A DNA stretch of 64,000 bases from Lachnospiraceae bacterium (GTDB taxonomy: Bacteria > Bacillota > Clostridia > Lachnospirales > Lachnospiraceae), in the NCBI GenBank assembly GCA_021199475.1, contig JAJQHZ010000085.1, positions 34,089 to 98,088 of the forward strand. Direction: 5' to 3'. Shown here in pieces: positions 3,453 through 60,997 of this stretch; the stretch's first letter is position 1; each line of letters begins with the position of its first letter. Below the pieces are notes generated by a model that was not told where the DNA came from, did no database searches, and saw only the letters and a list, made by a program, of their open reading frames with translations. A program made the position numbers and the translations under genes.

Positions 3453-3889
3453 TGTTAATGCCGAAAAGAACAAAACACCGCAAGCAGTTCCGTGGCTCCA
3501 TGAAGGGCAAGGCTCTCAGAGGCAACACGATTTCGAACGGTGAGTATGGCCTGGTGGCTCTTGAGCCGTGTTGGATTAAGTCGAACCAGATTGAGGCGGC
3601 CCGTGTCGCGATGACCCGTTATATCAAGCGTGGCGGTAAAGTTTGGATTAAGATTTTCCCGGATAAGCCTGTGACAACGAAGCCGGCTGAGACCCGAATG
3701 GGTTCCGGAAAAGGTACCCTGGAATACTGGGTTGCAGTTGTAAAGCCGGGACGTGTTATGTTCGAGCTGGCCGGAGTACCGGATGATGTTGCCCGTGAGG
3801 CGCTGCGTCTCGCTATGCACAAATTACCCTGCAAATGTAAAATCGTTTCTCGTGCAGACTTAGAAGGCGGTGATAACAGTGAAGAGTAA
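3452..3889 (+). CDS. rplP: 50S ribosomal protein L16
   Basis: 145-aa [18 protein letters not shown], start overlaps rpsC stop. Confidence 0.97.
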
Positions 3890-4082
3890 GAAGTATGTAG
3901 AAAGCTTAGAGAGCAAGTCCGCGGCAGAATTACAGGAAGAACTGGTAGCCGCGAAAAAAGAACTTTTCAATCTGAGATTCCAGAACGCGACGAACCAGCT
4001 GGATAACACGGGCAGAATCAAAGAAGTTCGCAAGAACATCGCCAGAATTCAGACTGTTATCACAGAAAAGGCGAATGCGTGA
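3870..4082 (+). CDS. rpmC: 50S ribosomal protein L29
   Basis: 70-aa ORF with GTG start (3870 or 3879), [19 protein letters not shown] typical of L29. Confidence 0.9.
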
Positions 4083-4094
4083 TCCGCGTCCCTG

Positions 4095-4160
4095 GTTCAA
4101 TGTTTAACATCATATGAATCGGGACATTCCGCGTCACAGATCCTTTGCAGGATTTATGAC
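4095..4160 (+). repeat. composite hairpin element (H1 + GGGACATTC linker + B hairpin 4133-4160) in rpmC-rpsQ spacer
   Basis: B: GTCACAGATCCT-TTGC-AGGATTTATGAC, 12 bp with a C.A mispair at position 5. Confidence 0.7.
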
Positions 4161-4182
4161 AATATAAGAAAGGAGAATTTCC

Positions 4183-4437
4183 GTGGAAAGAAATCTTAGA
4201 AAAACCCGTACGGGCAAGGTTGTCAGCGATAGAATGGATAAGACGATCGTTGTAGCTGTAGAGGATCACGTAAAGCATCCGCTCTACAACAAAATCGTGA
4301 AGAAGACATACAAGCTGAAGGCGCATGATGAGAATAATGAGTGCAACATCGGCGATACCGTAAAGGTTATGGAGACAAGACCGCTGTCTAAGGACAAGAG
4401 ATGGAGGCTTGTGGAAATCGTTGAGAAGGTTAAATAA
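4183..4437 (+). CDS. rpsQ: 30S ribosomal protein S17
   Basis: 84-aa ORF, GTG start after AAAGGAG, S17-like [19 protein letters not shown]. Confidence 0.95.
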
Positions 4438-4455
4438 CAGAGGAGGTATATCGGC

Positions 4456-4824
4456 ATGATACAGCAGGAATCCAGACTCAGGGTTGCTGATAATACTGGT
4501 GCGAAAGAGATTCTCTGCATCCGTGTTATGGGCGGTTCCACCAGAAGATATGCGACTGTTGGCGATACCATTATTGCTACGGTCAAAGATGCAACGCCAG
4601 GCGGTGTTGTCAAAAAAGGCGATGTCGTTAAGGCAGTTGTCGTTCGGACGGTAAAGGGCATCCGCCGCAAGGACGGTTCCTATATCCGATTTGACGAGAA
4701 CGCGGCAGTCATCATCAAGGATGACCTTACCCCGCGCGGAACCCGTATTTTCGGACCGGTAGCGAGAGAGCTTCGTGACAAGAAATTCATGAAGATTGTC
4801 TCCCTGGCGCCGGAGGTATTATAA
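4456..4824 (+). CDS. rplN: 50S ribosomal protein L14
   Basis: 122-aa [21 protein letters not shown]. Confidence 0.97.
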
Positions 4825-4837
4825 GGAGGACCGGAAC

Positions 4838-5137
4838 ATGAATAAGATTAAGACGGGCGATACGGTAAAGGTAATCGCCGGCAAGGAAAAAGGCAAGGAT
4901 GGCAAGGTCCTGGCGGTAAAGGACGGCAAGGTCCTGATTGAGGGTGTCAACATGGTGACGAAGCATACGAAGCCGTCTGCCGCGAATCAGAATGGCGGGA
5001 TTGTGCAGAAAGAAGCTTTTCTTGACGCGTCGAATGTGATGTATCTCCACAAGGGTCAGACGACCAGAATCGGCTTTAAGCTGGATGGAGACAAGAAGGT
5101 CCGCGTGGCAAAATCCACCGGAGACGTAATTGACTAA
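4838..5137 (+). CDS. rplX: 50S ribosomal protein L24
   Basis: ORF 4796-5137; ATG at 4838 ([23 protein letters not shown] motif) after AGGAGG. Confidence 0.95.
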
Positions 5138-5159
5138 TCAGGAGAGGAGGGTGCACAAG

Positions 5160-5699
5160 TTGAGCAGACTGAAAGAAGTATATCAGAATGAGATCGTAGA
5201 TGCTATGATCAAAAAATTTGGATATAAAAATATCATGGAAGTGCCGAAGCTTGAGAAGGTAGTAGTCAACATGGGCGTTGGCGAAGCAAAGGAGAATGCG
5301 AAAATCCTGGACTCCGCGGTCAGCGATATGGAAATCATTACCGGTCAGAAGGCAGTCAAGACAAAGGCAAAGAACTCCGTCGCAAACTTCAAGATCAGAG
5401 AGGGTATGCAGATCGGATGTAAGACGACACTTCGCGGTGAGAAGATGTATGATTTTGTAGATCGTCTCATCAACCTTGCACTGCCGCGTGTACGTGACTT
5501 CCGGGGTGTGAACCCGAACGCGTTTGACGGCAGAGGAAACTACGCACTGGGCATTAAGGAACAGCTGATTTTCCCGGAGATCGAGTATGACAAGATCGAC
5601 AAGGTGCGCGGCATGGACGTAATTTTCGTTACGACCGCGAAGACCGACGAGGAAGCCAGAGAGTTGCTGAGACTGTTCAATATGCCGTTTATGAAGTAG
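5160..5699 (+). CDS. rplE: 50S ribosomal protein L5
   Basis: ORF 5130-5699. Likely TTG start at 5160 ([12 protein letters not shown]) about 10 nt after AGGAGAGGAGG; GTG at 5151 is an alternative. Confidence 0.92.
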
Positions 5700-5711
5700 G
5701 AGGGAAGTTCC

Positions 5712-5897
5712 ATGGCAAAGACTTCAATGAAAATTAAGCAGCAGCGCAAACCGAAATTCTCAACGAGAGCGTACACGCGCTGCAGAATCTGCGGCCGTCC
5801 GCATTCCGTTCTGAGAAAATACGGGATCTGCCGCGTCTGCTTCCGTGAGCTGGCATACAAGGGCCAGATTCCGGGCGTGAAGAAAGCAAGCTGGTAA
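5712..5897 (+). CDS. rpsN: 30S ribosomal protein S14, type Z (zinc form)
   Basis: 61-aa ORF with CRICGRP...CRVC two CxxC pairs. Confidence 0.95.
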
Positions 5898-5919
5898 AAT
5901 AAGAAATAGATGAGGGAAA

Positions 5920-6008
5920 GCCACCGCCAAAGGCGGCGGGGCGCGTCCTCGATTCATTGTATGAATCGGGACATTCTACGTCGTACATTTGCTTCGCAAA
6001 TATATGAC
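5920..6008 (+). repeat. composite hairpin element in rpsN-rpsH spacer (short A-like 5920-5942, H1 5950-5968, B 5980-6008)
   Basis: H1 CGATTCAT-TGT-ATGAATCG; linker GGACATTCTAC; B GTCGTACATTTGC-TTC-GCAAATATATGAC. Confidence 0.7.
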
Positions 6009-6049
6009 ATGGCATGTAAAGTCTGAGGAGAGACGAGGAGGAAACTTAC

Positions 6050-6451
6050 ATGACGATTTCAGATCCGATTGCGGATATGCTCACGAGAATCCGCAATGCA
6101 AATACTGCAAAGCATGATACAGTCGATGTTCCGGCGTCCAAGATGAAGATCGCGATTGCGAACATTCTGGTCGATGAAGGATATATCAAAAAATACGAGC
6201 TGAAGGGAAATGGTGTTTCGAAGGACATTCATATCACCCTGAAATATGGCGCGGATAAGAACGAGAAGGTCATCACCGGCCTGAAGAGAATCTCCAAACC
6301 GGGTCTGCGTGTATATGCAGGCAAGGAGAATCTGCCGAGAGTCCTTGGCGGACTTGGTATCGCGATTCTGTCTACAAACCAGGGCGTGATCACCGACAAG
6401 CAGGCGAGAAAGCTGCAGGTTGGCGGCGAAGTGCTCGCGTTTGTGTGGTAA
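6050..6451 (+). CDS. rpsH: 30S ribosomal protein S8
   Basis: 133-aa [20 protein letters not shown]. Confidence 0.97.
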
Positions 6452-6461
6452 GATAAGGAGA

Positions 6462-6612
6462 GCCATCGCATGCTTTGTGCAAAGGAGGGGCCCGACTTGC
6501 CGGGAAGATTCCTTGGCACTGGCGCGTAAGCGCTGCGATGGCCTGGGTGTTCTCGATTTACTGCGTAAATCGGAACATTCTACGTCGCAAATTTGCCTTG
6601 CAAATTTACGAC
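6462..6612 (+). repeat. composite hairpin element in rpsH-rplF spacer (long A-like 6462-6542, H1 6554-6572, B 6584-6612)
   Basis: GCCATCGCA ... TGCGATGGC; H1 CGATTTAC-TGC-GTAAATCG; linker GAACATTCTAC; B GTCGCAAATTTGC-CTT-GCAAATTTACGAC. Confidence 0.7.
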
Positions 6613-6677
6613 ATTTACTGAAAACAGAAGGGGCGCGCAGTCCCTTCCGAAAATCTAAGTAAGGAGGACATACAGGC

Positions 6678-7217
6678 ATGTCACGTATAGGAAGAATGCC
6701 AGTGGCAATCCCGGCAGGCGTTACTGTCACGATTGCGGAAGGAAATGAAGTAACAGTGAAGGGTCCGAAAGGAACGCTCGTGCGGGCGCTTCCGAAGGAG
6801 ATGGAGATTAAGCTTGAGGATGGCCATGTGGTTGTCTCCAGACCGAATGATCTGAAAAGGATGAAATCTCTCCACGGACTTACCAGAACCCTGATTCATA
6901 ATATGGTTGTCGGCGTCAGCGAGGGCTACACCAAGACGCTCGAGATCAACGGTGTCGGCTATCGTGCGCAGAAATCAGGCAAGAAGCTTACGCTGACCCT
7001 TGGCTATTCTCATCCGGTTGAGATGGAAGACCCGGCGGATATCGAGACAAAGGTAGATGGCAACAAGATTATCGTATCCGGTATCAGCAAGGAGAAGGTC
7101 GGCCAGTATGCGGCGGAGATCCGGGAGAAGAGAAAGCCGGAGCCGTATAAGGGCAAGGGCATCAAGTATGCGGATGAGGTAATCAGACGCAAGGTTGGTA
7201 AGACTGGTAAGAAATAA
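6678..7217 (+). CDS. rplF: 50S ribosomal protein L6
   Basis: 179-aa [18 protein letters not shown]. Confidence 0.97.
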
Positions 7218-7234
7218 GTGAGGAGAGTGCGAAG

Positions 7235-7603
7235 ATGATTAATAAGAAATCAAGAACAGAAGTTCGTGTGAAAAAACATAAAAGAATTCGCAACCGTTAC
7301 AGCGGTACAGCCGAGAGACCGCGTCTTGCCGTATTCCGGAGCAACAAGCATATGTATGCGCAGGTCATCGACGATACGGTTGGACACACTCTGGTATCCG
7401 CCAGCACCCTGCAGAAGGATGTCAAAGCAGAGCTGGAGCAGACCGATGACGTAGCCGCAGCTGCATATCTTGGCAAGGTAATTGCCCAGAGAGCGCTTGA
7501 AAAAGGCATCAAAGAAGTCGTCTTTGACAGAGGCGGGTTCATCTATCAGGGCAAGGTGAAGGCTCTGGCTGAGGCAGCCAGAGAAGCCGGGCTGGAATTC
7601 TAA
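7235..7603 (+). CDS. rplR: 50S ribosomal protein L18
   Basis: 122-aa ORF, L18-like [18 protein letters not shown]. Confidence 0.96.
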
Positions 7604-7618
7604 GAGGAGGAAAGACAC

Positions 7619-8134
7619 ATGAGACATGAGATCATTGACCCGAAGCAGTTCGGAGAAGAGCTGACTGATAAGGTTGTGGCAATTAAGCGTGTATCCAAGA
7701 CTGTAAAGGGTGGACGTACCATGCGTTTTACTGCTCTTGTAGTGGTTGGCGACGGCAACGGTCATATCGGGGCAGGACTTGGCAAGGCGATTGAGATTCC
7801 GGAAGCAATCCGGAAAGGAAAAGAAGATGCAATGAAGAAGCTGATGACCATTCCGATGAATGAGGATTCCAGCGTACCGTATGATGTGATCGGTAAATTC
7901 GGCGGCGCAAGCGTACTGCTGAAGAGAGCTCCGGAAGGTACCGGTATCATCGCAGGCGGTCCGGTCCGCAGCGTCCTGGAGACCGCGGGTATCAAAAATA
8001 TCCGTACAAAGTCACTTGGCTCGAACAACAAGCAGAACGTAGTTCTGGCGACACTGGAAGCACTGAAGCAGATGAAATCCCCGGAGGAGGTAGCAAGACT
8101 TCGCGGGAAATCTGTAGAGGAGATTCTGGGATAA
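7619..8134 (+). CDS. rpsE: 30S ribosomal protein S5
   Basis: 171-aa ORF, S5-like [27 protein letters not shown]. Confidence 0.97.
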
Positions 8135-8140
8135 TAGTGA

Positions 8141-8263
8141 GCCATCGCAACGGAGATCAGGCTTGCGCCTGAAGGCGATGGCCTTCGTCCATGATTTCTG
8201 CGAAATCACGGACATATAGAGAGCCATCGCAATGAAGATCAGGCTTGCGCCTGATGGCGATGG
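8141..8263 (+). repeat. A - B - A hairpin triplet in rpsE-rpmD spacer (A1 8141-8182, B 8187-8213, A2 8224-8263)
   Basis: A: GCCATCGC..CAGGC-TTGC-GCCTG..GCGATGGC, twice; B: GTCCATGATTTC-TGC-GAAATCACGGAC. Confidence 0.75.
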
Positions 8264-8283
8264 GTATAGAGAGGAGGCCAGTC

Positions 8284-8466
8284 ATGGCAGACAAGGTAAA
8301 GGTTACACTGGTGAAGTCACCAATTGGTGCTATCCCAAAGCATCGCGCGACGGTGAAAGCACTTGGTCTTACCAAGCTGAACAAGACCGTGGAGCTTCCG
8401 AATAACGATGCCACAAAGGGCATGGTTCGGCAGGTTGCTCATCTGGTGAAGGTAGAAGAGGCGTAA
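8284..8466 (+). CDS. rpmD: 50S ribosomal protein L30
   Basis: ORF 8245-8466; ATG at 8284 ([15 protein letters not shown]) after GAGGAGG. Confidence 0.94.
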
Positions 8467-8477
8467 AGGAGGACATT

Positions 8478-8918
8478 ATGGATTTATCGAATTTAAGTCC
8501 GGCCGAGGGAAGCGTTCACAGCAATAACTTCAGACGTGGGCGCGGACACGGATCCGGAAATGGAAAGACGGCCGGCAAGGGCCACAAAGGACAGAAGGCG
8601 CGTTCCGGAGCACCGAGAATCGGTTTTGAGGGTGGTCAGATGCCTCTGTACAGACGTCTTCCGAAGAGAGGCTTCTATAATCGGAATTCTCTGGACATCG
8701 TTGTGGTTAATATTGGTGATCTGGAACGGTTTGAGGATGGGTCGGTTGTCACGATCGATACCCTGCTGGAGAACCGGATGATCAAAAAGCCGGGAGACGG
8801 CGTAAAGGTACTTGGAAATGGAACGCTCACAAAGAAGCTGACCGTGCAGGTGAATGCATTCAGCGAGGGCGCAAAAGCTAAGATCGAGGAGCTCGGTGGA
8901 AAAGCAGAGGTGATCTAA
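8478..8918 (+). CDS. rplO: 50S ribosomal protein L15
   Basis: 146-aa ORF, glycine/basic-rich N-terminus typical of L15. Confidence 0.96.
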
Positions 8919-19671: not shown

Positions 19672-20280
19672 CACGAAACAACTGGCGGTACCGACAGGAA
19701 ACAGCTGCAAAATACAGCGAAGTGCTGTCGAAGAACAATAGAACGATGGAATAAAGAGGGATTCATGCGATAGGATGATCGAATGAAACCGAATGAAATC
19801 AAATTTCATTCGACAACAGATTCGGTGTGAATATAAACTCTTACTTATATATAGCAGGTACTGTTTGGCTGGATGGATCTGGCCGGAAGGATGGTGAACG
19901 ATTTCGTTTTACCGCTGCCACTGTTTTATAAGTCAGGATTGCGCAGATTTATTTCGTTGTGATATTGCTTTTAATACCGGCACAGGAACAGGCAGTGCCT
20001 GGTCTCCCCAATGTACACCGCCGGGGAGCAGCGCGCGTTCCGAAAGAGAACGGATGCGCAGGCAGATGCCGCGCAAGGCAAGTTTGTGCGAAGGCGCAGA
20101 TATCCCTTTGGCAGGAAAGGAATGGGAAGCTTCCGAACAATCGGATTCGGTTTTCGATTGCTTTTGTATGCCAGGGTGAGCGCAGGCAGAATCAGGGCCA
20201 TGGCTTAATGGGCCGGAAAGGTCGCCGTATGGCGGCTGGGCGTACTGGTTTACGCCCCAGTTAGAAACAACATCAGGAGA

Positions 20281-43448: not shown

Positions 43449-45021
43449 TGTGAAAATAGAATATAGAAGCGATCTCCAAAACAATTATCTGGTTTTGGAA
43501 GTGCCGGAAATAAGCGAGGAAGAGGATTATGGGCTGCGGATGGTACAGCAGAACCGGGTGAAGGGATTGTTGCAGGTGCACGAGTCCGGAATGGATGGAA
43601 AACGGTATTTGAACTATGAAATCACATCCCGGCAAACGCTGGAGAGCCTGTATGAAAAGAAGGTGATGGGATATCAGGATATTCTTTTCATATTCTCCGG
43701 CATATACGATACACTGGAAGAGATGCGGAAGTATCTGCTTTCCTGGCAGCGGCTTCTGTTCGCACCCGAGTTGATCTATGTCCTTCCGGAGCGCAGAGGA
43801 TTGCTGCTGTGCTATTATGCGAAGGAAGACGAATATCCGGTTACGGCATTGGCGGAATTTATTCTAAAGCGGCTTGATCACAGAGATCGACAGGCGGTTG
43901 CATTGGGCTATGGTTTTTACCAGCAGATATCCGAAGCAAATTTCAGTCTGGCAAAAACGCTGAAAGAGATTCTGGCCGGGGCGCGGGAGAACGGACAAGG
44001 GAAACATGGTTCCGGCCGTCAGGCCGCGCCGGACGGCAAGGGCGGAGCGGGTGCTGCCTGGGAATATGGCCGCAGTGCCGCCCCGGATGACAGGGGAAGA
44101 GCGGGTGCTGCCTGGGAATATGGAAAGCAGTCTTTGCCGGACGGCAGGGGTGGAACGGATGCTGCCTGGGAATATGGCCGTCAGGCCGCGCCGGACGACA
44201 GGAACAGACCAGGTGCCGCCTGGGAATGCGGTCGGCAGGGGCTACCCGATGGGAGGAGGGTATCGGATGCAGATGAAGAGCCGGAAAATGAGTGGATGGG
44301 GTGGGATCACCTGGAAAACGGGAAATGTGATAATAGTCAGCCCTTTGCTCAAAAGAGAAGCCGTAAAAAGAAACGGGAAAAGGATCTGGCGGACTGGCTC
44401 TTTTCAAAGGTGCATCCGGTTATTATGATTACCTTTCTATGCTGCATGGTTGTTCTTGAAGTATTGCTCGTGTTTGGTCTGCTTGGCATAAGGGAGGCCG
44501 GAGGCTGCTTTTTCCTGATACTGTCGGCAGAGGCGCTGATGAACCGCCGCATATTACATAAGAACAAGAATGAAACTGAGGAATGGGAGGAGGAAAACGA
44601 GGAGGAAAACGAGGAGGAAGAATATCAGAAAATCCTTCAGGAAGTATATCAGGCGGAACCGGAGGCGGAGCATGAGCCTCTGGAGGAGACATGCTATCTG
44701 AATACGGAAAAAGAAGAGGAACCATTGCGTCTGGTCTGTGTATCAAACGAGAACTTCCCGGATATCTATCCCGGGGAAGCCCCGCTTTATATCGGAAAAA
44801 TCCGGGGAGATGCGGATATTCTGCTGAACGTATCTACTGTGAGCAGGATACACGCCAGACTGGAGGTGAGGGAGAAGGCTTGCTATCTGAGAGATATGAA
44901 CAGTAAAAACGGAACCTTCATTAATGGCAGACGGCTGCTGCCGCAGGAGGAGTGTGAGCTTGGGGCAGAGGATTCGGTCGCATTTGCGGAGGTCGAATAT
45001 CGGGTGGTGGCACAGCGTTAA
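43441..45021 (+). CDS. FHA domain-containing membrane protein of the Tad locus (DUF6382-like N-domain)
   Basis: 526 aa. N-domain, 18-aa repeats (AAWEYG), one TM helix, acidic stretch, C-terminal FHA (VSRIHARLEV ... LRDMNSKNGTFING). Confidence 0.8.
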   Translation: MTDVKIEYRSDLQNNYLVLEVPEISEEEDYGLRMVQQNRVKGLLQVHESGMDGKRYLNYEITSRQTLESLYEKKVMGYQDILFIFSGIYDTLEEMRKYLLSWQRLLFAPELIYVLPERRGLLLCYYAKEDEYPVTALAEFILKRLDHRDRQAVALGYGFYQQISEANFSLAKTLKEILAGARENGQGKHGSGRQAAPDGKGGAGAAWEYGRSAAPDDRGRAGAAWEYGKQSLPDGRGGTDAAWEYGRQAAPDDRNRPGAAWECGRQGLPDGRRVSDADEEPENEWMGWDHLENGKCDNSQPFAQKRSRKKKREKDLADWLFSKVHPVIMITFLCCMVVLEVLLVFGLLGIREAGGCFFLILSAEALMNRRILHKNKNETEEWEEENEEENEEEEYQKILQEVYQAEPEAEHEPLEETCYLNTEKEEEPLRLVCVSNENFPDIYPGEAPLYIGKIRGDADILLNVSTVSRIHARLEVREKACYLRDMNSKNGTFINGRRLLPQEECELGAEDSVAFAEVEYRVVAQR

Positions 45022-45062: not shown

Positions 45063-45266
45063 TATGCGAAGCGAAGCAGAACCGCAGGTCGATCGGGGGT
45101 GAAGCTGGTGCGTGTGACAGGAGGCGGATTAATGCGAAGCGAAGCAGAACCGCAGGTCGATCGGGGTGAAGCTGGCGCGTGTGACAGGAGGCGGATCAAT
45201 GCGAAGCGAAGCAGAACCGCAGGCCGATCTGGGGTGGGTCTGGCGCAACGTGACAGGAAGAGGTTC
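45063..45266. repeat. about 67-nt tandem repeat x3
   Basis: ATGCGAAGCGAAGCAGAACCGCAGGTCGATCGGGGTGAAGCTGG(Y)GCGTGTGACAGGAGGCGGAT(Y)A repeated; third copy diverged and abuts the GNAT gene 3' end. Confidence 0.9.
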
Positions 45267-46104: not shown

Positions 46105-46337
46105 AATAGTACTCCTGTAAATGGCAGAATTCGGTTGTGTGTTTGCGGCACATTACCTGTTCATACATCACCAGCTCATCCATGCACAGAGGGCATGGAT
46201 GAAGACAAGGTCCCAGTTTCAAGAGGAGACCGTAGAGGTTCTGCACGAAATCGCGCGGCGATTATCAGCTGCACGGCTTTCAATGTATCATGAAACTGCG
46301 GTAGAATGCAAGAGGAAACAAAAAGGAAAACAGAAAG

Positions 46338-46464
46338 GACCAGGAAGGAGACCGAAAGGGACAGAAAGGAAATAGAAACGACCAGGAAGGAGACCGAAAG
46401 GGACAGAAAGGAAACAGAAACGACCAGGAAGGAGACAGAGGGGGGAGAGAAAGGAAACAGAAAC
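46338..46464 (+). repeat. 42-nt purine-rich tandem repeat x3 (third copy diverged)
   Basis: GACCAGGAAGGAGACCGAAAGGGACAGAAAGGAAAYAGAAAC. Confidence 0.9.
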
Positions 46465-46686
46465 GAAAAGACAGCGCCCGGTTGTTTTCAGCCGAAAAAT
46501 ATGTTATCCTGTCAGCATTCTAACAAACCGAATCGGGAAGCCTGCGAAAAAGAGCGGTCTATTGTGGCAATCTATATACGATTGACCGAATACGCAGTAT
46601 ACGTTGCGCTGGTGAATAGGTGCAGGTTCATTCGTGGCAATTCACACAGAGCTGTGAATCGCAGGAGCAGAGGCAGGAGGATAGAA

Positions 46687-49629: not shown

Positions 49630-50280
49630 TGAAATCCAATCTCCTTATTTTTCTCTTTATTCAATTCTGCCTGTTTATAGCAAACGACGTCAGTCGTTTT
49701 ACTTTGCGGCATTGCTTTCGTGCTATCTTTCCAGTTTACCCGTTCTCATAAAAAAGTCAAGAAAAGAATCGTTTGGCAGAGACTTAGCTGAAAAAACGTT
49801 CGGCAGCTGTTTGAAAATAACGCCAGGAAAATCGCCTGAGGAAAGATTATCAGAAAAAACTATATGAAAAAAATTGTGAGAAAATGACAGATTTTTACAA
49901 CAAATTACAAAAGTGGTGGTATGATGGCGAGTGACAATAATATTTTGTCTGTAACTATCATTATTGCGCATGGCCATCCGGAGGACGACAGTCGCCTGCA
50001 TTCGTCCAGTCCTTCTCTGGAGATCGTTCGAGGTTCTGCTCATCACTTTTATGGCTGGCGCAATGGCAAATGCTGTAAGACTGTTTGCCACCCTGATACA
50101 GGCGGATAGAAAGGGGGAATGGGATTCGGACGTCTGTAAAAGGGAAACTATTTCGTGCGGCAGAACCCGGTTTACTGTTGACTGATACGGGGACCTTGAA
50201 AAGCATTTACATACTACGCAGCAGCTGTTTTTCCGGGCGGAGGCTGGAATTCGGACGTACAATGATAAGATACAATGAAA

Positions 50281-50348
50281 GCCGCACAATGGAAAATCGC
50301 TTCGCGATTGGTGCGGCCTTCGTCCATACTCGCTTAGCGAGTACGGAC
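50281..50348 (+). repeat. A + B composite hairpin element outside the ribosomal operon
   Basis: A GCCGCAC-AATGGAA-AATCGC-TTC-GCGATT-G-GTGCGGC; linker CTTC; B GTCCATACTCGC-TTA-GCGAGTACGGAC then ATAAGA. Confidence 0.75.
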
Positions 50349-50547
50349 ATAAGATGCGTTACGTAAAACAGAATAGGAATCGATTAGGAAGGAATTTGTT
50401 TGGGGATGAACAAAAAAGCCTTCTTTTGCGCATTGAAATGTGCAGAATAGTAAGCGGAATATGCGGTATATTGGCGGGCCGGCAAGAATCCCCGGCCCGA
50501 ACCATTCTTGAAAAAATATTTCTGCCGCCCGCAAGCGGATGACTGGT

Positions 50548-50622
50548 GCAGATACCGGATGGCGCAGCTATGATGGTGTACAGAGCAGCAGATACCGGTT
50601 GGCGCGGTTAGGATGATGTACA
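50548..50622 (+). repeat. 35-nt direct repeat x2 at 40-nt period
   Basis: GCAGATACCGG(A/T)TGGCGC(A/G)G(C/T)TA(T/G)GATG(G/A)TGTACA. Confidence 0.85.
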
Positions 50623-50772
50623 ATGTAATTCTTTGTGGCTATTTTTGTGGGATGATGGTAGAATGGCATAAATGGAAGGAACATACAGCGATAGACAACA
50701 CGTTTGCTGCTTTAACGTATATGGATAGGATCGAACGCTGGAAATCGTTCGAAAAATGTTTCGACAGGCCAA

Positions 50773-50925
50773 AGATGAGAACGTATTAGAAGAGAAAGCG
50801 TCAGATGAGAAGGTATTAAATTGAGAAGACGTTAGAAGAGAAAGCGTCAGACGAGAAAACATTATTTGAGAAAGCATTACCTGAGAAAGTGTCGAATGAG
50901 AAATAATCAGATGAGAAAAAAATCA
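50773..50925 (+). repeat. array of ten 15-nt units each centred on GAGAA
   Basis: GAGAA at 50777, 50792, 50807, 50823, 50838, 50853, 50868, 50883, 50898, 50913 (spacing 15 nt, one of 16). Confidence 0.95.
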
Positions 50926-54154: not shown

Positions 54155-54261
54155 GTCTGCGTCCTCCGTGGGAAAAGTATAGCATGACTTTTGCCTCTGC
54201 GCAATCCCTTTTTGCAAAATTAGCGCGCTATTTCTGCTCGCAGGTGAAATGCCGCTTCCGT

Positions 54262-54347
54262 GCCTGACACAACATGCCTGGCACAACATGTCTGACGCAA
54301 CATGCCTGACACTATATGCCTGACACTATATATCTGACACTGTCAGG
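54262..54347. repeat. six iteron-like direct repeats (about 14 nt, core CTGACAC)
   Basis: GCCTGACACAACAT, GCCTGGCACAACAT, GTCTGACGCAACAT, GCCTGACACTATAT, GCCTGACACTATATAT, CTGACACTGTCAGG. Confidence 0.9.
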
Positions 54348-59414: not shown

Positions 59415-60997
59415 GAAGGGATCAACCGCTGCAGGATGGAACCGCTCTTTTGCAGGAAATACGGGAAAAGCGGAGAAACGTTTATCTGACAGAAGATGAA
59501 AATGCGCTCGAAATAAGTTGTGACAGTGGAAAACCGCGAAACGGAGACTGGCTGGATTTGCCGGCATGGGACGGAGGCTTTATGGAAAAATCACCGCGAA
59601 AAAAGAAAAAAGGAGCCGGGATTCCGGTAAGGCTGTATTTGCTTGCGCTGCTGGCCGCCGCCGGGGTTGGAACGGGCTCTGCTGCGGGCACGGCTGGGGC
59701 GCTGCGGGCTTCTGCTATGGAAAATGCTGCAGACGAAACCACTGCCGATGAATCTGAGGCGGAAACGGAGTCGGAGAAAGGTATCGCAGACGAAACCTTT
59801 ACTGATGCATCTGAGACGAAAACGGAGTCGGAGAAAGGTATCGCAGGCGAAACCACTGTCGATGCATCTGAGACGGAAACGGAGCCAGAGAAAGGTATCG
59901 CAGGCGAAACCGCCGCCGGGGACGCGTCTGGGACGGAAACCGAGACGGAGGAGGGCACCGCAGGAGAGGCCGCTGAGACCTCTGCGCTGAGCGTTCCGGA
60001 TTTTTTGGGGCTGCAGATCGCGCAGATGATCGGCATTGAGACGGAAGCGGAGACCGAGACAGAGAACGAAACGGAGACGGAAATCGATCTCACAGATGAA
60101 ATCCATCGCGCGGTGCGCAGTCAGATCTGGGAGATACAGATGGGAAGCGAATTTCAGATTCCAATGGCTGCCTCGGAAACGGATCAGAGGCCGGCGCTCC
60201 CGGTGGTCTGGTCGTGCGGCCGGCTCTTTACCTGGTACTCGGGCGGGCTTTACCCGTGGCAGCAGGAACGGTCGATGGAAAGGCTGGAGCAGCTGGTCCG
60301 GGCGACGGTGGAGGATTACGACGGCAGCTGGTCGGTCTATGTGAAAAACCTGGACACCGATGAAAGCTTTGTCATCAACGATGAGCCAATGAAATCCGCG
60401 AGTGTAATGAAACTGTTTATCATGGGAACGGTGTATGCTGCGTTTGATGAAGGGGAACTGGAGCGGACGGACGAAATTATGTCTCTGATGAACCTGATGA
60501 TCAGCAACAGCGATAATACCGCCTCCAATCAGCTTTTGTATATTCTCGGAGATTCCAGCTACGCGGACGGCATCGCGAAGGTGAATGAATTTATACAGAG
60601 CCACGGCTACAGCGAGATGACCGTGGAATACAATGGCTTCAGCAATTCGGCGACGAACTCCGGTGAGGGCATCAATCAGGTGGCCGCAAAGGATGTGGGA
60701 GCGCTGCTTGAGGATATTTACCGGCGTACCTGGATGAACCGCGCAGACAGCAATGAGATGGAGGAAATGCTTCTGGCGCAGAACACACGCTACAAGATTC
60801 CGGCGGGGCTGCCGGACGGAGTGCTCTGCGGAAACAAAAGCGGCGAGATGAGCGATACACAGAATGATGCGGCTATCATCTATTCGGACGGGTGCGATTA
60901 TATTCTGGTCGTGCTTTCGAATGGATGGAGCAGCTCTGACACGGCAATTCAGAGGATAAAAAACATTTCCGCTCTGGTGTATGAGTATTTTAACTGA
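59411..60997 (+). CDS. serine hydrolase, class A beta-lactamase-related, with acidic tandem-repeat linker
   Basis: SxxK (SVMK), SDN and KSG motifs in the C-terminal domain. The ATGA overlap with the upstream gene suggests start 59411; the ATG at 59582 (MEKSPRKKKKG + TM) is an alternative. 57-nt repeats at 59753-59926. Confidence 0.75.
   Translation: MRRDQPLQDGTALLQEIREKRRNVYLTEDENALEISCDSGKPRNGDWLDLPAWDGGFMEKSPRKKKKGAGIPVRLYLLALLAAAGVGTGSAAGTAGALRASAMENAADETTADESEAETESEKGIADETFTDASETKTESEKGIAGETTVDASETETEPEKGIAGETAAGDASGTETETEEGTAGEAAETSALSVPDFLGLQIAQMIGIETEAETETENETETEIDLTDEIHRAVRSQIWEIQMGSEFQIPMAASETDQRPALPVVWSCGRLFTWYSGGLYPWQQERSMERLEQLVRATVEDYDGSWSVYVKNLDTDESFVINDEPMKSASVMKLFIMGTVYAAFDEGELERTDEIMSLMNLMISNSDNTASNQLLYILGDSSYADGIAKVNEFIQSHGYSEMTVEYNGFSNSATNSGEGINQVAAKDVGALLEDIYRRTWMNRADSNEMEEMLLAQNTRYKIPAGLPDGVLCGNKSGEMSDTQNDAAIIYSDGCDYILVVLSNGWSSSDTAIQRIKNISALVYEYFN

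Follow-up and report, generated by a model that had tools for sequence, protein, structure and literature searches.

The spc ribosomal-protein operon of a gut Lachnospiraceae bacterium carries similar hairpins in four of its intercistronic spacers, and this locus raises the question of whether they are signals of the operon or copies of something that has entered it. The operon lies within a stretch of 64,000 nt (GenBank assembly GCA_021199475.1, contig JAJQHZ010000085.1, positions 34,089–98,088 of the forward strand), referred to here as the window, whose own numbering is used throughout. An initial annotation, made from the letters of the window, described the hairpins and a fifth copy outside the operon as a conserved RNA or DNA structure with a fixed mispair. 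The analysis reported here indicates, with good confidence, that the spc hairpins, like the fifth copy, are 3′ stem-loops (designated H2) belonging to a dispersed palindromic repeat of modular build, of the kind represented by repetitive extragenic palindromes (REPs) and the Rickettsia palindromic elements (RPEs). The element is apparently undescribed in Firmicutes and apparently belongs to no published REP family.

The five GTC...GAC hairpins were found at exactly the coordinates first reported, all on the + strand, each with 12–13 pairs and a loop of 3–4 nt. They occupy the rpmC/rpsQ spacer (4133–4160, 12 pairs with C.A at pair 5 and G.T at pair 7), the rpsN/rpsH spacer (5980–6008, 13 pairs with C.A at pair 7), the rpsH/rplF spacer (6584–6612, 13 pairs with C.A at pair 5), the rpsE/rpmD spacer (8187–8213, 12 pairs with A.C at pair 5) and, outside the operon, 50322–50348 (12 pairs with A.C at pair 5). 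The terminal GAC is followed by A[T/A], no T-tract lies 3′ of any of the five, and the spc copies lie outside every open reading frame (ORF) of the operon, the last two points being as originally described. Their occurrence is non-random, as 200 first-order Markov simulations of the window, scanned in the same way as the real sequence, gave a mean of 0.43 hairpins over both strands of the whole window, with a maximum of three hits and none of the 200 reaching five. A covariance model of H2, trained on 16 family hairpins and run over the whole window with filters off, returned solely the five known sites at E<1e-3 (4133, E=3e-9; 5980, E=3e-4; 6584, E=2e-6; 8187, E=3e-10; 50322, E=2e-10), and the copies at 5980 and 6584 were recovered although they were outside the training set.

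The spc regions of 80 Lachnospiraceae, retrieved with the S8 protein, were searched with the covariance model and a structural scan. The H2 family was confined to the window and to six relatives (L001, L002, L003, L006, L007, and L012), these six being the spc loci among the 80 whose S8 is at least 91% identical, and it was absent from the remaining 74 of 80. The six relatives together hold more than 25 further hairpin units, and the copies within ribosomal-protein operons of the window and these relatives are on the sense strand without exception. The carriers hold modules in differing spacers, and the same orthologous spacer may be filled in one genome and empty in another. The rpsH-rplF spacer is 226 nt long in the window against 68–75 nt, module-free, in L006 and L012; rpsE-rpmD, which carries modules in both the window and L002, measures 149 nt and 135 nt in these two against 12–27 nt elsewhere among the relatives; and rpmC-rpsQ varies between relatives from 100–119 nt to 35 nt. 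In L006 modules are present in rplW-rplB and rpsS-rplV, two spacers that are module-free in the window. A segment of 42 nt in the fifth copy (50315–50356) is 93% identical to L001 16430–16471 at a non-orthologous site, L001 carrying there an insertion of ~60 nt which contains the match, while the window is uninterrupted at the corresponding point (around 12514). Over the 80 loci, spacer lengths range from 12 to 335 nt for rpsN-rpsH, 18 to 452 nt for rpsH-rplF and 5 to 149 nt for rpsE-rpmD. The comparison thus shows that very close relatives differ by gain, loss, duplication and shuffling of modules at the level of DNA. Variable spacers together with filled and empty orthologous sites point to a dispersed, mobile or recombining repeat and not to a conserved operon signal. 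The reading of the hairpins as an RNA feature of the spc operon is accordingly not supported, given their absence from 74 of 80 loci, the varying spacer, and the occurrence of the module far from ribosomal genes and inside coding sequence in both orientations.

Alignment of the spacers and folding established that each H2 is the 3′ arm of a larger modular element, which consists of a hairpin H1, a linker, an optional UA unit and H2. On the + strand, H1 is a GC-rich hairpin, often of the form (GA)GCC[A/G][C/T]CGC...GCG..GGC, and in its long form an outer stem of 8–10 bp is followed by a 5′ internal loop rich in purines (such as AACGGAGA or AATGGAAA) and by an inner stem of 5–6 bp with TTC or TTGC as its cap. 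H1 and the next hairpin are joined by a linker, CT[A/G/T]C. The UA unit, of which there may be one or more, reads GTYC, a bulged T, CGATTnnn/nnnAATCG and GRAC, followed by ATTCYRC (typically ATTCTAC). H2 itself opens with GTC, forms 12–13 pairs of which one, four or six pairs up from the base, is irregular, and closes with GAC followed by A. The module measures ~75–80 nt, and the window holds a total of 13 hairpin units at five sites, with UA units in three spacers and H1 at four sites.

Copies outside ribosomal operons were sought by scanning metagenomes with the UA pattern. The matches belonged mostly to unrelated families from groundwater and human gut, which were filtered by flank and pairing, and about twenty metagenome loci with the flanks of the family were left. 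An nhmmer profile of ten full modules, run on those loci, found complete H1-linker-H2 modules, and modules were present in independent assemblies from different projects. In viral contigs the UA pattern gave one match, unable to form a hairpin and attributable to chance. Several copies are intergenic. Their locations include an rpsS-rplV spacer, the 3′ side of a histidine kinase gene and a site just upstream of a gene which, from the first residues of its product (MKLAPLADRV), we take to be groES. Four head-to-tail UA units with a period of 36 nt occur in L186 (3372–3515), intergenic and antisense to both flanking genes.

Other copies lie inside genes, and all those examined are in frame and free of stops, add whole codons and occur in both orientations. 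One copy is in ileS (L149), where it splits two tRNA-synt_1 stretches of isoleucyl-tRNA synthetase (IleRS) and encodes the peptide ESRAMQNRPAGDGAACVLDSQSESGQ. Another is in the gene of a membrane alpha/beta hydrolase (L104), and is found again on contigs L126, L196, and L200. Copies running antisense were found in L161, within an rluA-like pseudouridine synthase gene (PseudoU_synth_2), and in L155, within two paralogous genes for AAA_35 ATPases. A copy in nth, the endonuclease III gene, was found in L090 and also in L201/L202 (NCBI and Logan assemblies). The same insert is carried by P0001, a protein annotated by NCBI as endonuclease III of a Lachnospiraceae metagenome-assembled genome (MAG). 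P0001 came from a protein-database search in which the query was a profile of the element translated in six frames, a search of low power for matches of 25 residues, and was the sole hit with E<1, being a genuine endonuclease III with the insert. Orthologues of nth which are 88–90% identical outside the insert lack exactly 27 codons, and the filled and empty DNA sites align cleanly. The insert is 27 codons long in nth and 25–27 codons in the other genes. In L090 the nth frame has a TAA ~40 nt upstream of the insert where orthologues have Leu (IIER*KKEYP vs IIERLKKEYP), so this copy may be a pseudogene or may be translated from a start further downstream; the allele of L201/P0001 is intact. Two module copies are direct and 3.5 kb apart in L104/L126, and inverted and 0.8–2.8 kb apart in L196/L200, a difference of orientation which could be due to rearrangement between copies, strain variation or misassembly.

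The stems of the family covary. Among 16 distinct H2 hairpins from nine sources, nine of the 12 pairs change on both sides, 90.6% of cells are paired, none of 500 shuffles equalled the observed covariation, and all slid controls were far below it. It was initially proposed that the stems are kept paired by compensatory change while differing almost completely in sequence. The first part stands; the second does not, as the copies share the consensus C GTC RYA MAT..AT.TRY GAC A, and a repeat of 66 nt in the window (5945–6010 vs 6549–6614) is 80% identical. The covariation is, in addition, one among paralogous repeat copies and not among orthologous sites of a conserved element. Two orthologous nth inserts show paired T-A to C-G changes in the outer and inner stems of H1, while the encoded peptide differs at 7 of 25 residues, the nucleic-acid fold thus being conserved more than the peptide.

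The irregular pair behaves differently on the two strands. Pair 5 is non-standard in 14 of the 16 H2 hairpins. Four copies of the window have the C.A or A.C mispair at pair 5 and the 5980 copy has it at pair 7, as first described, but it is better read as a G.T (or G.U) wobble of the complementary strand. Counted over 24 distinct H2 hairpins on the + strand, C.A/A.C cells number 22 and G.T/T.G cells four, and almost all copies, read on the complementary strand, form a perfect hairpin that includes one G.T. With RNA parameters, 23 of 29 distinct copies gave the more stable fold for the complement (mean –2.3 kcal/mol), as did all three of the copies for which DNA parameters were used. A copy in L137 has three C/A mismatches on the + strand, each of which is G.U on the opposite strand. 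The + strand is G-rich, with a GC skew of about +0.16, and the orientation of copies follows the G-rich strand at most sites. C-to-T changes linked to the skew would give G.T on the + strand and not C.A, so the asymmetry may be read as selection for folding of the complementary strand. On that strand the linker reads GTAG, GCAG, GAAG or GCGG and stands directly 5′ of the GCC stem of H1.

The explanations that compete with a dispersed repeat have to account for the same observations. Cis-acting elements of the spc mRNA, tuning individual cistrons as an RNase site, an exonuclease barrier or a site for a ribosomal or other RNA-binding protein, would fit the uniformly sense orientation in the ribosomal operons of the window and six relatives, the presence of four of the five sites of the 64-kb window in the spc operon, the highly expressed contexts of other copies (the rpsS-rplV spacer and the presumed groES), and the maintenance of stems by compensatory change; REPs elsewhere, moreover, stabilise upstream mRNA (discussed in Di Nocera et al., 2013). 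This explanation is nevertheless judged unlikely, since the hairpins are missing from most spc loci and from the orthologous spacers of close relatives, their location differs from genome to genome, the module occurs within coding sequences both ways round and antisense to the flanking genes in L186, and the sense strand has C.A where the antisense strand has G.U, so that the fold in the mRNA is the poorer one. An acquired secondary role in RNA, for example as a stability barrier, is possible. The occurrence of the module in both orientations relative to genes also means that no single type of transcript would carry it, and no promoter evidence for antisense transcription of the ribosomal operon came to light, although no search aimed at it was made. 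It is quite improbable that the functional molecule is an antisense RNA, or another RNA of the complementary strand, whose hairpins are perfect except for a conserved G.U recognised by a protein. Such an RNA would agree with the full pairing of the complement with one G.U in most copies, with its better fold in 23 of 29 and with the three G.U pairs of the L137 copy, but hairpins of single-stranded DNA (ssDNA) predict the same asymmetry, G.T being the most stable DNA mismatch.

The intragenic copies could also be pictured as an RNA-level parasite, removed from the RNA as a mini-intron or bypassed by the ribosome. The stop-free inserts of whole codons in both orientations are what translated and not spliced inserts would need, an RNA structure could not work both ways round, and no ribozyme family was matched; the compact, strongly structured element inside the essential ileS and a weak, non-significant Rfam resemblance of window 8176–8229 (– strand) to the Hac1/Xbp1 intron (E=3.1) speak for this explanation, which is considered highly improbable. 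An origin of the hairpins as palindromes arisen by chance, as remnants of terminators or as artefacts of assembly can practically be discounted. The hairpin background of bacterial DNA is admittedly high, and a generic scan for hairpins with an RTY..RAY base was dropped as noisy (261 hits vs 145 in reversed-sequence controls) in favour of nhmmer and the covariance model, but five hairpins were observed against less than one expected by simulation, T-tracts are lacking, and the modules recur in independent assemblies.

Several known classes were also considered and rejected. Intrinsic terminators do not apply, the hairpins being followed by ATA, ATG, ATT, AAT and similar and not by a T-tract, and a ribosomal-protein leader or other cis-regulatory RNA kept at an orthologous position, with covariation among orthologues, is incompatible with absence from 74 of 80 spc loci and variable position otherwise. 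The defining features of kink-turns, attC sites, CRISPR repeats and tRNA minihelices were judged, from the sequence, to be absent. The view that the hairpins match no named RNA family was borne out, as an Rfam search at gathering threshold gave no hit there and an E-value scan of 3800–8500 gave chance-level hits only. A miniature inverted-repeat transposable element is likewise excluded, the module ends (GAGAGCC... / ...GGGACA) not being inverted repeats and no clean duplication being seen at three pairs of filled and empty sites.

The dispersed palindromic repeat is thus the preferred explanation, and several traits of REPs are present in it: a short imperfect palindrome (about 20–40 nt) in multiple dispersed copies, mostly extragenic, between co-directional or convergent genes, and variable in presence. 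The idea of a recognised structure with a conserved irregularity, as put forward initially, holds to the extent that the structure is preserved; of the three roles then suggested (RNase processing or stability, a protein site on RNA, and a protein-bound ssDNA hairpin), the last appears to fit best. The structure under selection would be a hairpin formed, single-stranded, by the strand complementary to the spc mRNA, and the irregular pair, at its fixed place four or six pairs up from the base, would serve as a recognition feature. Hairpins with a fixed irregularity are what HUH/Y1 enzymes use, and by this analogy an HUH/Y1 enzyme of the RAYT or IS200/IS605 TnpA type, acting on ssDNA, probably spreads or maintains the element. 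The copies in the spc operon would be co-transcribed passengers. As all of them are sense, the mRNA carries the weaker-folding version, and the spc modules lie upstream of the native leader and Shine-Dalgarno sequences. These copies may secondarily serve as barriers that stabilise the mRNA.

A number of observations weigh against this interpretation. A tblastn search for RAYT and IS200 TnpA in 2.2 Mb of loci found nothing significant (best E 0.4), although this was a weak test, made with query sequences unchecked against a reference and on genome fragments. At three pairs of filled and empty sites there was no consistent target-site duplication or fixed target, a lack that fits insertion of the HUH type and equally fits recombination or slippage. 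A non-ribosomal locus of 20 kb from a MAG of the same study series, picked independently of the element, had zero copies. Four of the five window sites are within 4 kb of ribosomal operon and all are sense, which is not obviously predicted for a neutral dispersed repeat; the clustering and sense bias could reflect local re-insertion, insertion linked to transcription or exposed ssDNA, or selection on RNA hairpins. Copy counts for the source genome cover 64 kb. The orientation along the G-rich strand has exceptions (two copies in L155, one at 4817 in L177 and one at 2739 in L012). The strand that folds best is, finally, the leading-strand template, where the IS608 paradigm would lead one to expect the opposite strand, the lagging-strand template. 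A weak transposase match beside the tandem array of L186 was discarded, as it is in no ORF of that kind.

In a survey of bacterial genomes, REPs were sorted into GTAG- and CGTC-tagged super-families, and no Firmicutes are listed (Di Nocera et al., 2013; PMC3733652). GTAG REPs are thought to be mobilised by RAYT/TnpA-REP Y1 transposases, and those of the GTAG-24 type have stems of 12–13 bp with a mismatch or unpaired base at position 5 (Di Nocera et al., 2013). The present H2 has a stem of the same length with an irregularity that is usually at the fifth pair, and like GTAG REPs the element consists of short imperfect intergenic palindromes, mostly between co-directional genes, with sub-families arising by complementary stem changes. 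In-frame copies of REPs and RPE-4/6 have been found in genes that include those of tRNA synthetases, of pseudouridine synthases and of DNA repair (Di Nocera et al., 2013), and the present element is in frame in the same gene classes. With regard to the tag, the linkers GTAG and GCAG are within the published variants, whereas GAAG and GCGG are outside them. The element differs from GTAG REPs in having two or three different hairpins (H1, UA, H2) arranged head-to-tail and not inverted dimers (REPINs or BIMEs), in its Firmicute host and in the lack of a RAYT match in the weak tblastn search. The CGTC families have an unpaired CGTC, a stem of 8–9 bp opening with A-T pairs, a loop of 4–5 nt and a CCA tail; they include RPE-4 and RPE-6 of Rickettsia and dRS3 of Neisseria, and no dedicated transposase is known for them (Di Nocera et al., 2013). 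On the + strand H2 is preceded by C and so reads ..CGTC.., and Rickettsia conorii members of the CGTC REPs also lie in frame inside genes. However, GTC here pairs with GAC, the stem is 12–13 bp, the loop 3–4 nt and the tail AT, so that the element does not conform to the CGTC type.

Like the Rickettsia palindromic elements, which are selfish DNA, the present repeat occurs between genes and in frame in genes, essential ones included, and it adds a peptide and does not destroy the gene. The likeness is one of behaviour, drawn without sequence comparison, and not of homology. RPE-1 is about 100–150 bp long; the modules described here are ~75–80 nt, their host is a gut Lachnospiraceae, and the clade of the window concentrates copies in ribosomal-operon spacers. 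The ends of IS200/IS605 elements carry sub-terminal imperfect hairpins that are recognised as ssDNA, with a fixed irregularity, no target duplication and an orientation bias. The fixed-irregularity hairpins, the lack of visible target duplication and the orientation trend along the G-rich strand resemble these ends and their miniature derivatives, the palindrome-associated transposable elements (PATEs), but the two end hairpins of IS200/IS605 resemble each other while H1 and H2 differ, no conserved tetra- or pentanucleotide target was seen here, and the better-folding strand is the leading- and not the lagging-strand template. Ribosomal-protein leaders in Rfam, such as S4-Clostridia, share with the present hairpins a structured sequence between ribosomal-protein genes, although they are kept at one orthologous position across a taxon and the present hairpins are variable.

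A bolder formulation is put forward tentatively and is thought rather unlikely to hold in full. It describes an undescribed composite hairpin repeat of gut Lachnospiraceae which enters essential genes in frame, of which one clade accumulates copies, specifically and without exception in the sense direction, in spacers of the ribosomal-protein super-operon, and whose fold on the strand opposite to the mRNA is maintained by compensatory substitutions. If true, this would imply either a dedicated hairpin-recognising ssDNA enzyme of Firmicutes, other than a classical RAYT, or host domestication of the repeat as punctuation within operons.

Within the window the set of hairpins first described was real but partial, having missed the UA-type units and the H1 hairpins, all of which are on the + strand. 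The rpmC-rpsQ spacer has a UA-like hairpin at 4088–4125, of the GTCC..GGAC type with a small internal loop after base pair 4 and followed by ATTCCGC, recognised by folding and by a like arrangement in L001. In rpsN-rpsH, folding gave a short-form H1 at 5920–5942 (GCC-A-CCGCC AAA GGCGG-C-GG, with an A.C mismatch), whose GAGCCACCGC..GCGGCGGC unit is also present in L001, L002, L003, and L006. It is followed at 5945–5972 by a UA unit (GTCC-T(bulge)-CGATTCAT TGT ATGAATCG-GGAC, then ATTCTAC) identified by alignment and folding. The rpsH-rplF spacer carries an enlarged H1 at 6460–6542, found by folding, in which GAGCCATCGC ... GCGATGGC close a branched insert, and at 6549–6576 a UA unit, supported by alignment and folding (GTTC-T-CGATTTAC TGC GTAAATCG-GAAC, with T-A and not C-G at pair 3, then ATTCTAC); this module stops just 5′ of the conserved rplF leader. 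In rpsE-rpmD a long-form H1 (H1a, 8139–8182) has an 8-bp outer stem, a 5′ internal loop of the AACGGAGA type, a 6-bp inner stem, a TTGC loop and a CTTC linker after it, and the nhmmer module profile matched 8139–8216 with E=3.8e-12. A second H1 (H1b, 8221–8263), 92% identical to H1a, has no H2 behind it and was matched in its H1 part only (nhmmer E=0.046); it is surrounded by ATAGAGAG repeats of 8–9 nt, which look like a local duplication. Outside the operon a long-form H1 lies at 50281–50317 (GCCGCAC AATGGAA AATCGC TTC GCGATT G GTGCGGC, then the CTTC linker), and the module profile matched 50280–50351 with E=3.6e-12. This fifth module is situated in a region of ~1.2 kb (49630–50865) between murG on the – strand and the next + strand ORF, in which no convincing ORF and no Rfam match were found. 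Periodic repeats of 15 nt at 50776–50924 reach the start of the ORF downstream of it.

The spacers also contain conserved sequences which are distinct from the repeat. Directly before the Shine-Dalgarno sequence of rplF (6618–6667) is a leader-like motif present in about 70 of 76 Lachnospiraceae spc loci, consisting of CUGAAAACAG, a covarying hairpin of 7–9 bp and then C(C/U)GA(A/C/U)AAU(C/U)UAAGU. RNAalifold of 30 sequences gave seven pairs, six of them with compensatory changes. The motif has no Rfam match and may be an undescribed autoregulatory leader of a ribosomal protein, perhaps S8 or L6. The repeat modules are always inserted upstream of it. At about 6010–6049, before the start of rpsH, a block (A)CATG(T/A)AAAGTCTGA...GGAGGAAACT is conserved in the window and in 12 of 12 relatives, whatever lies upstream, and could be a second conserved leader. 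The sole Rfam match of the window at gathering threshold is an S4-Clostridia leader at 20216–20265 (47.1 bits).

Other repeats were noted during the searches. In genomes without the H2 family (L004, L008–L011, and many others) the spacers flanking rpsH contain other repeated-looking sequences, such as gccgaaagcaacttggcgagttcgagccg... in L008 and L010, and across Lachnospiraceae the two spacers seem generally to act as sinks for small repeats. A separate abundant repeat of groundwater and sediment metagenomes, AATCGAGGATCC-TCGATTYGY-NNN-RCRAATCGGGAC (L085, L088, L089, L091, L092, L097, L101, L105–L107, and about 30 more loci), shares the hairpin shape of UA, with four base pairs at the foot, a single bulged nucleotide and then an 8-bp stem topped by a triloop. 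In L106 it is flanked by tRNA-Ile and tRNA-Ala, and in L105 it lies beside tRNA-Arg. A human-gut repeat, GGTCTGTCC(T)TCGATTTACTCCGCAAATCGGGACCAGTACC (L084, L086, L102, L103, L141), occurs as two tandem copies ~95 nt apart, just upstream of the ribosome-binding site of a gene, and may be distantly related to UA. The tandem arrays of the window at 44028–44243, 45064–45246, 46323–46466, 54261–54338 and 59729–59971, with periods of 54, 67, 21, 14, and 57 nt, respectively, are unrelated to the hairpin family.

These results remove a false lead, that of a new regulatory RNA in the spc operon, and for annotation they mean that long variable spacers in these operons are repeat insertions. REP- and RPE-like repeats are known mainly from Proteobacteria, with descriptions from a few further phyla, and a structurally distinct family is active here in abundant gut Firmicutes. 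Between near-identical species it alters how ribosomal-protein genes are spaced, and it lengthens proteins such as IleRS and endonuclease III by segments of 25–27 residues. The pairs of filled and empty alleles, together with the strand asymmetry, could be used to identify the enzyme that recognises the hairpins and to test effects of the repeat on operon expression or protein function.

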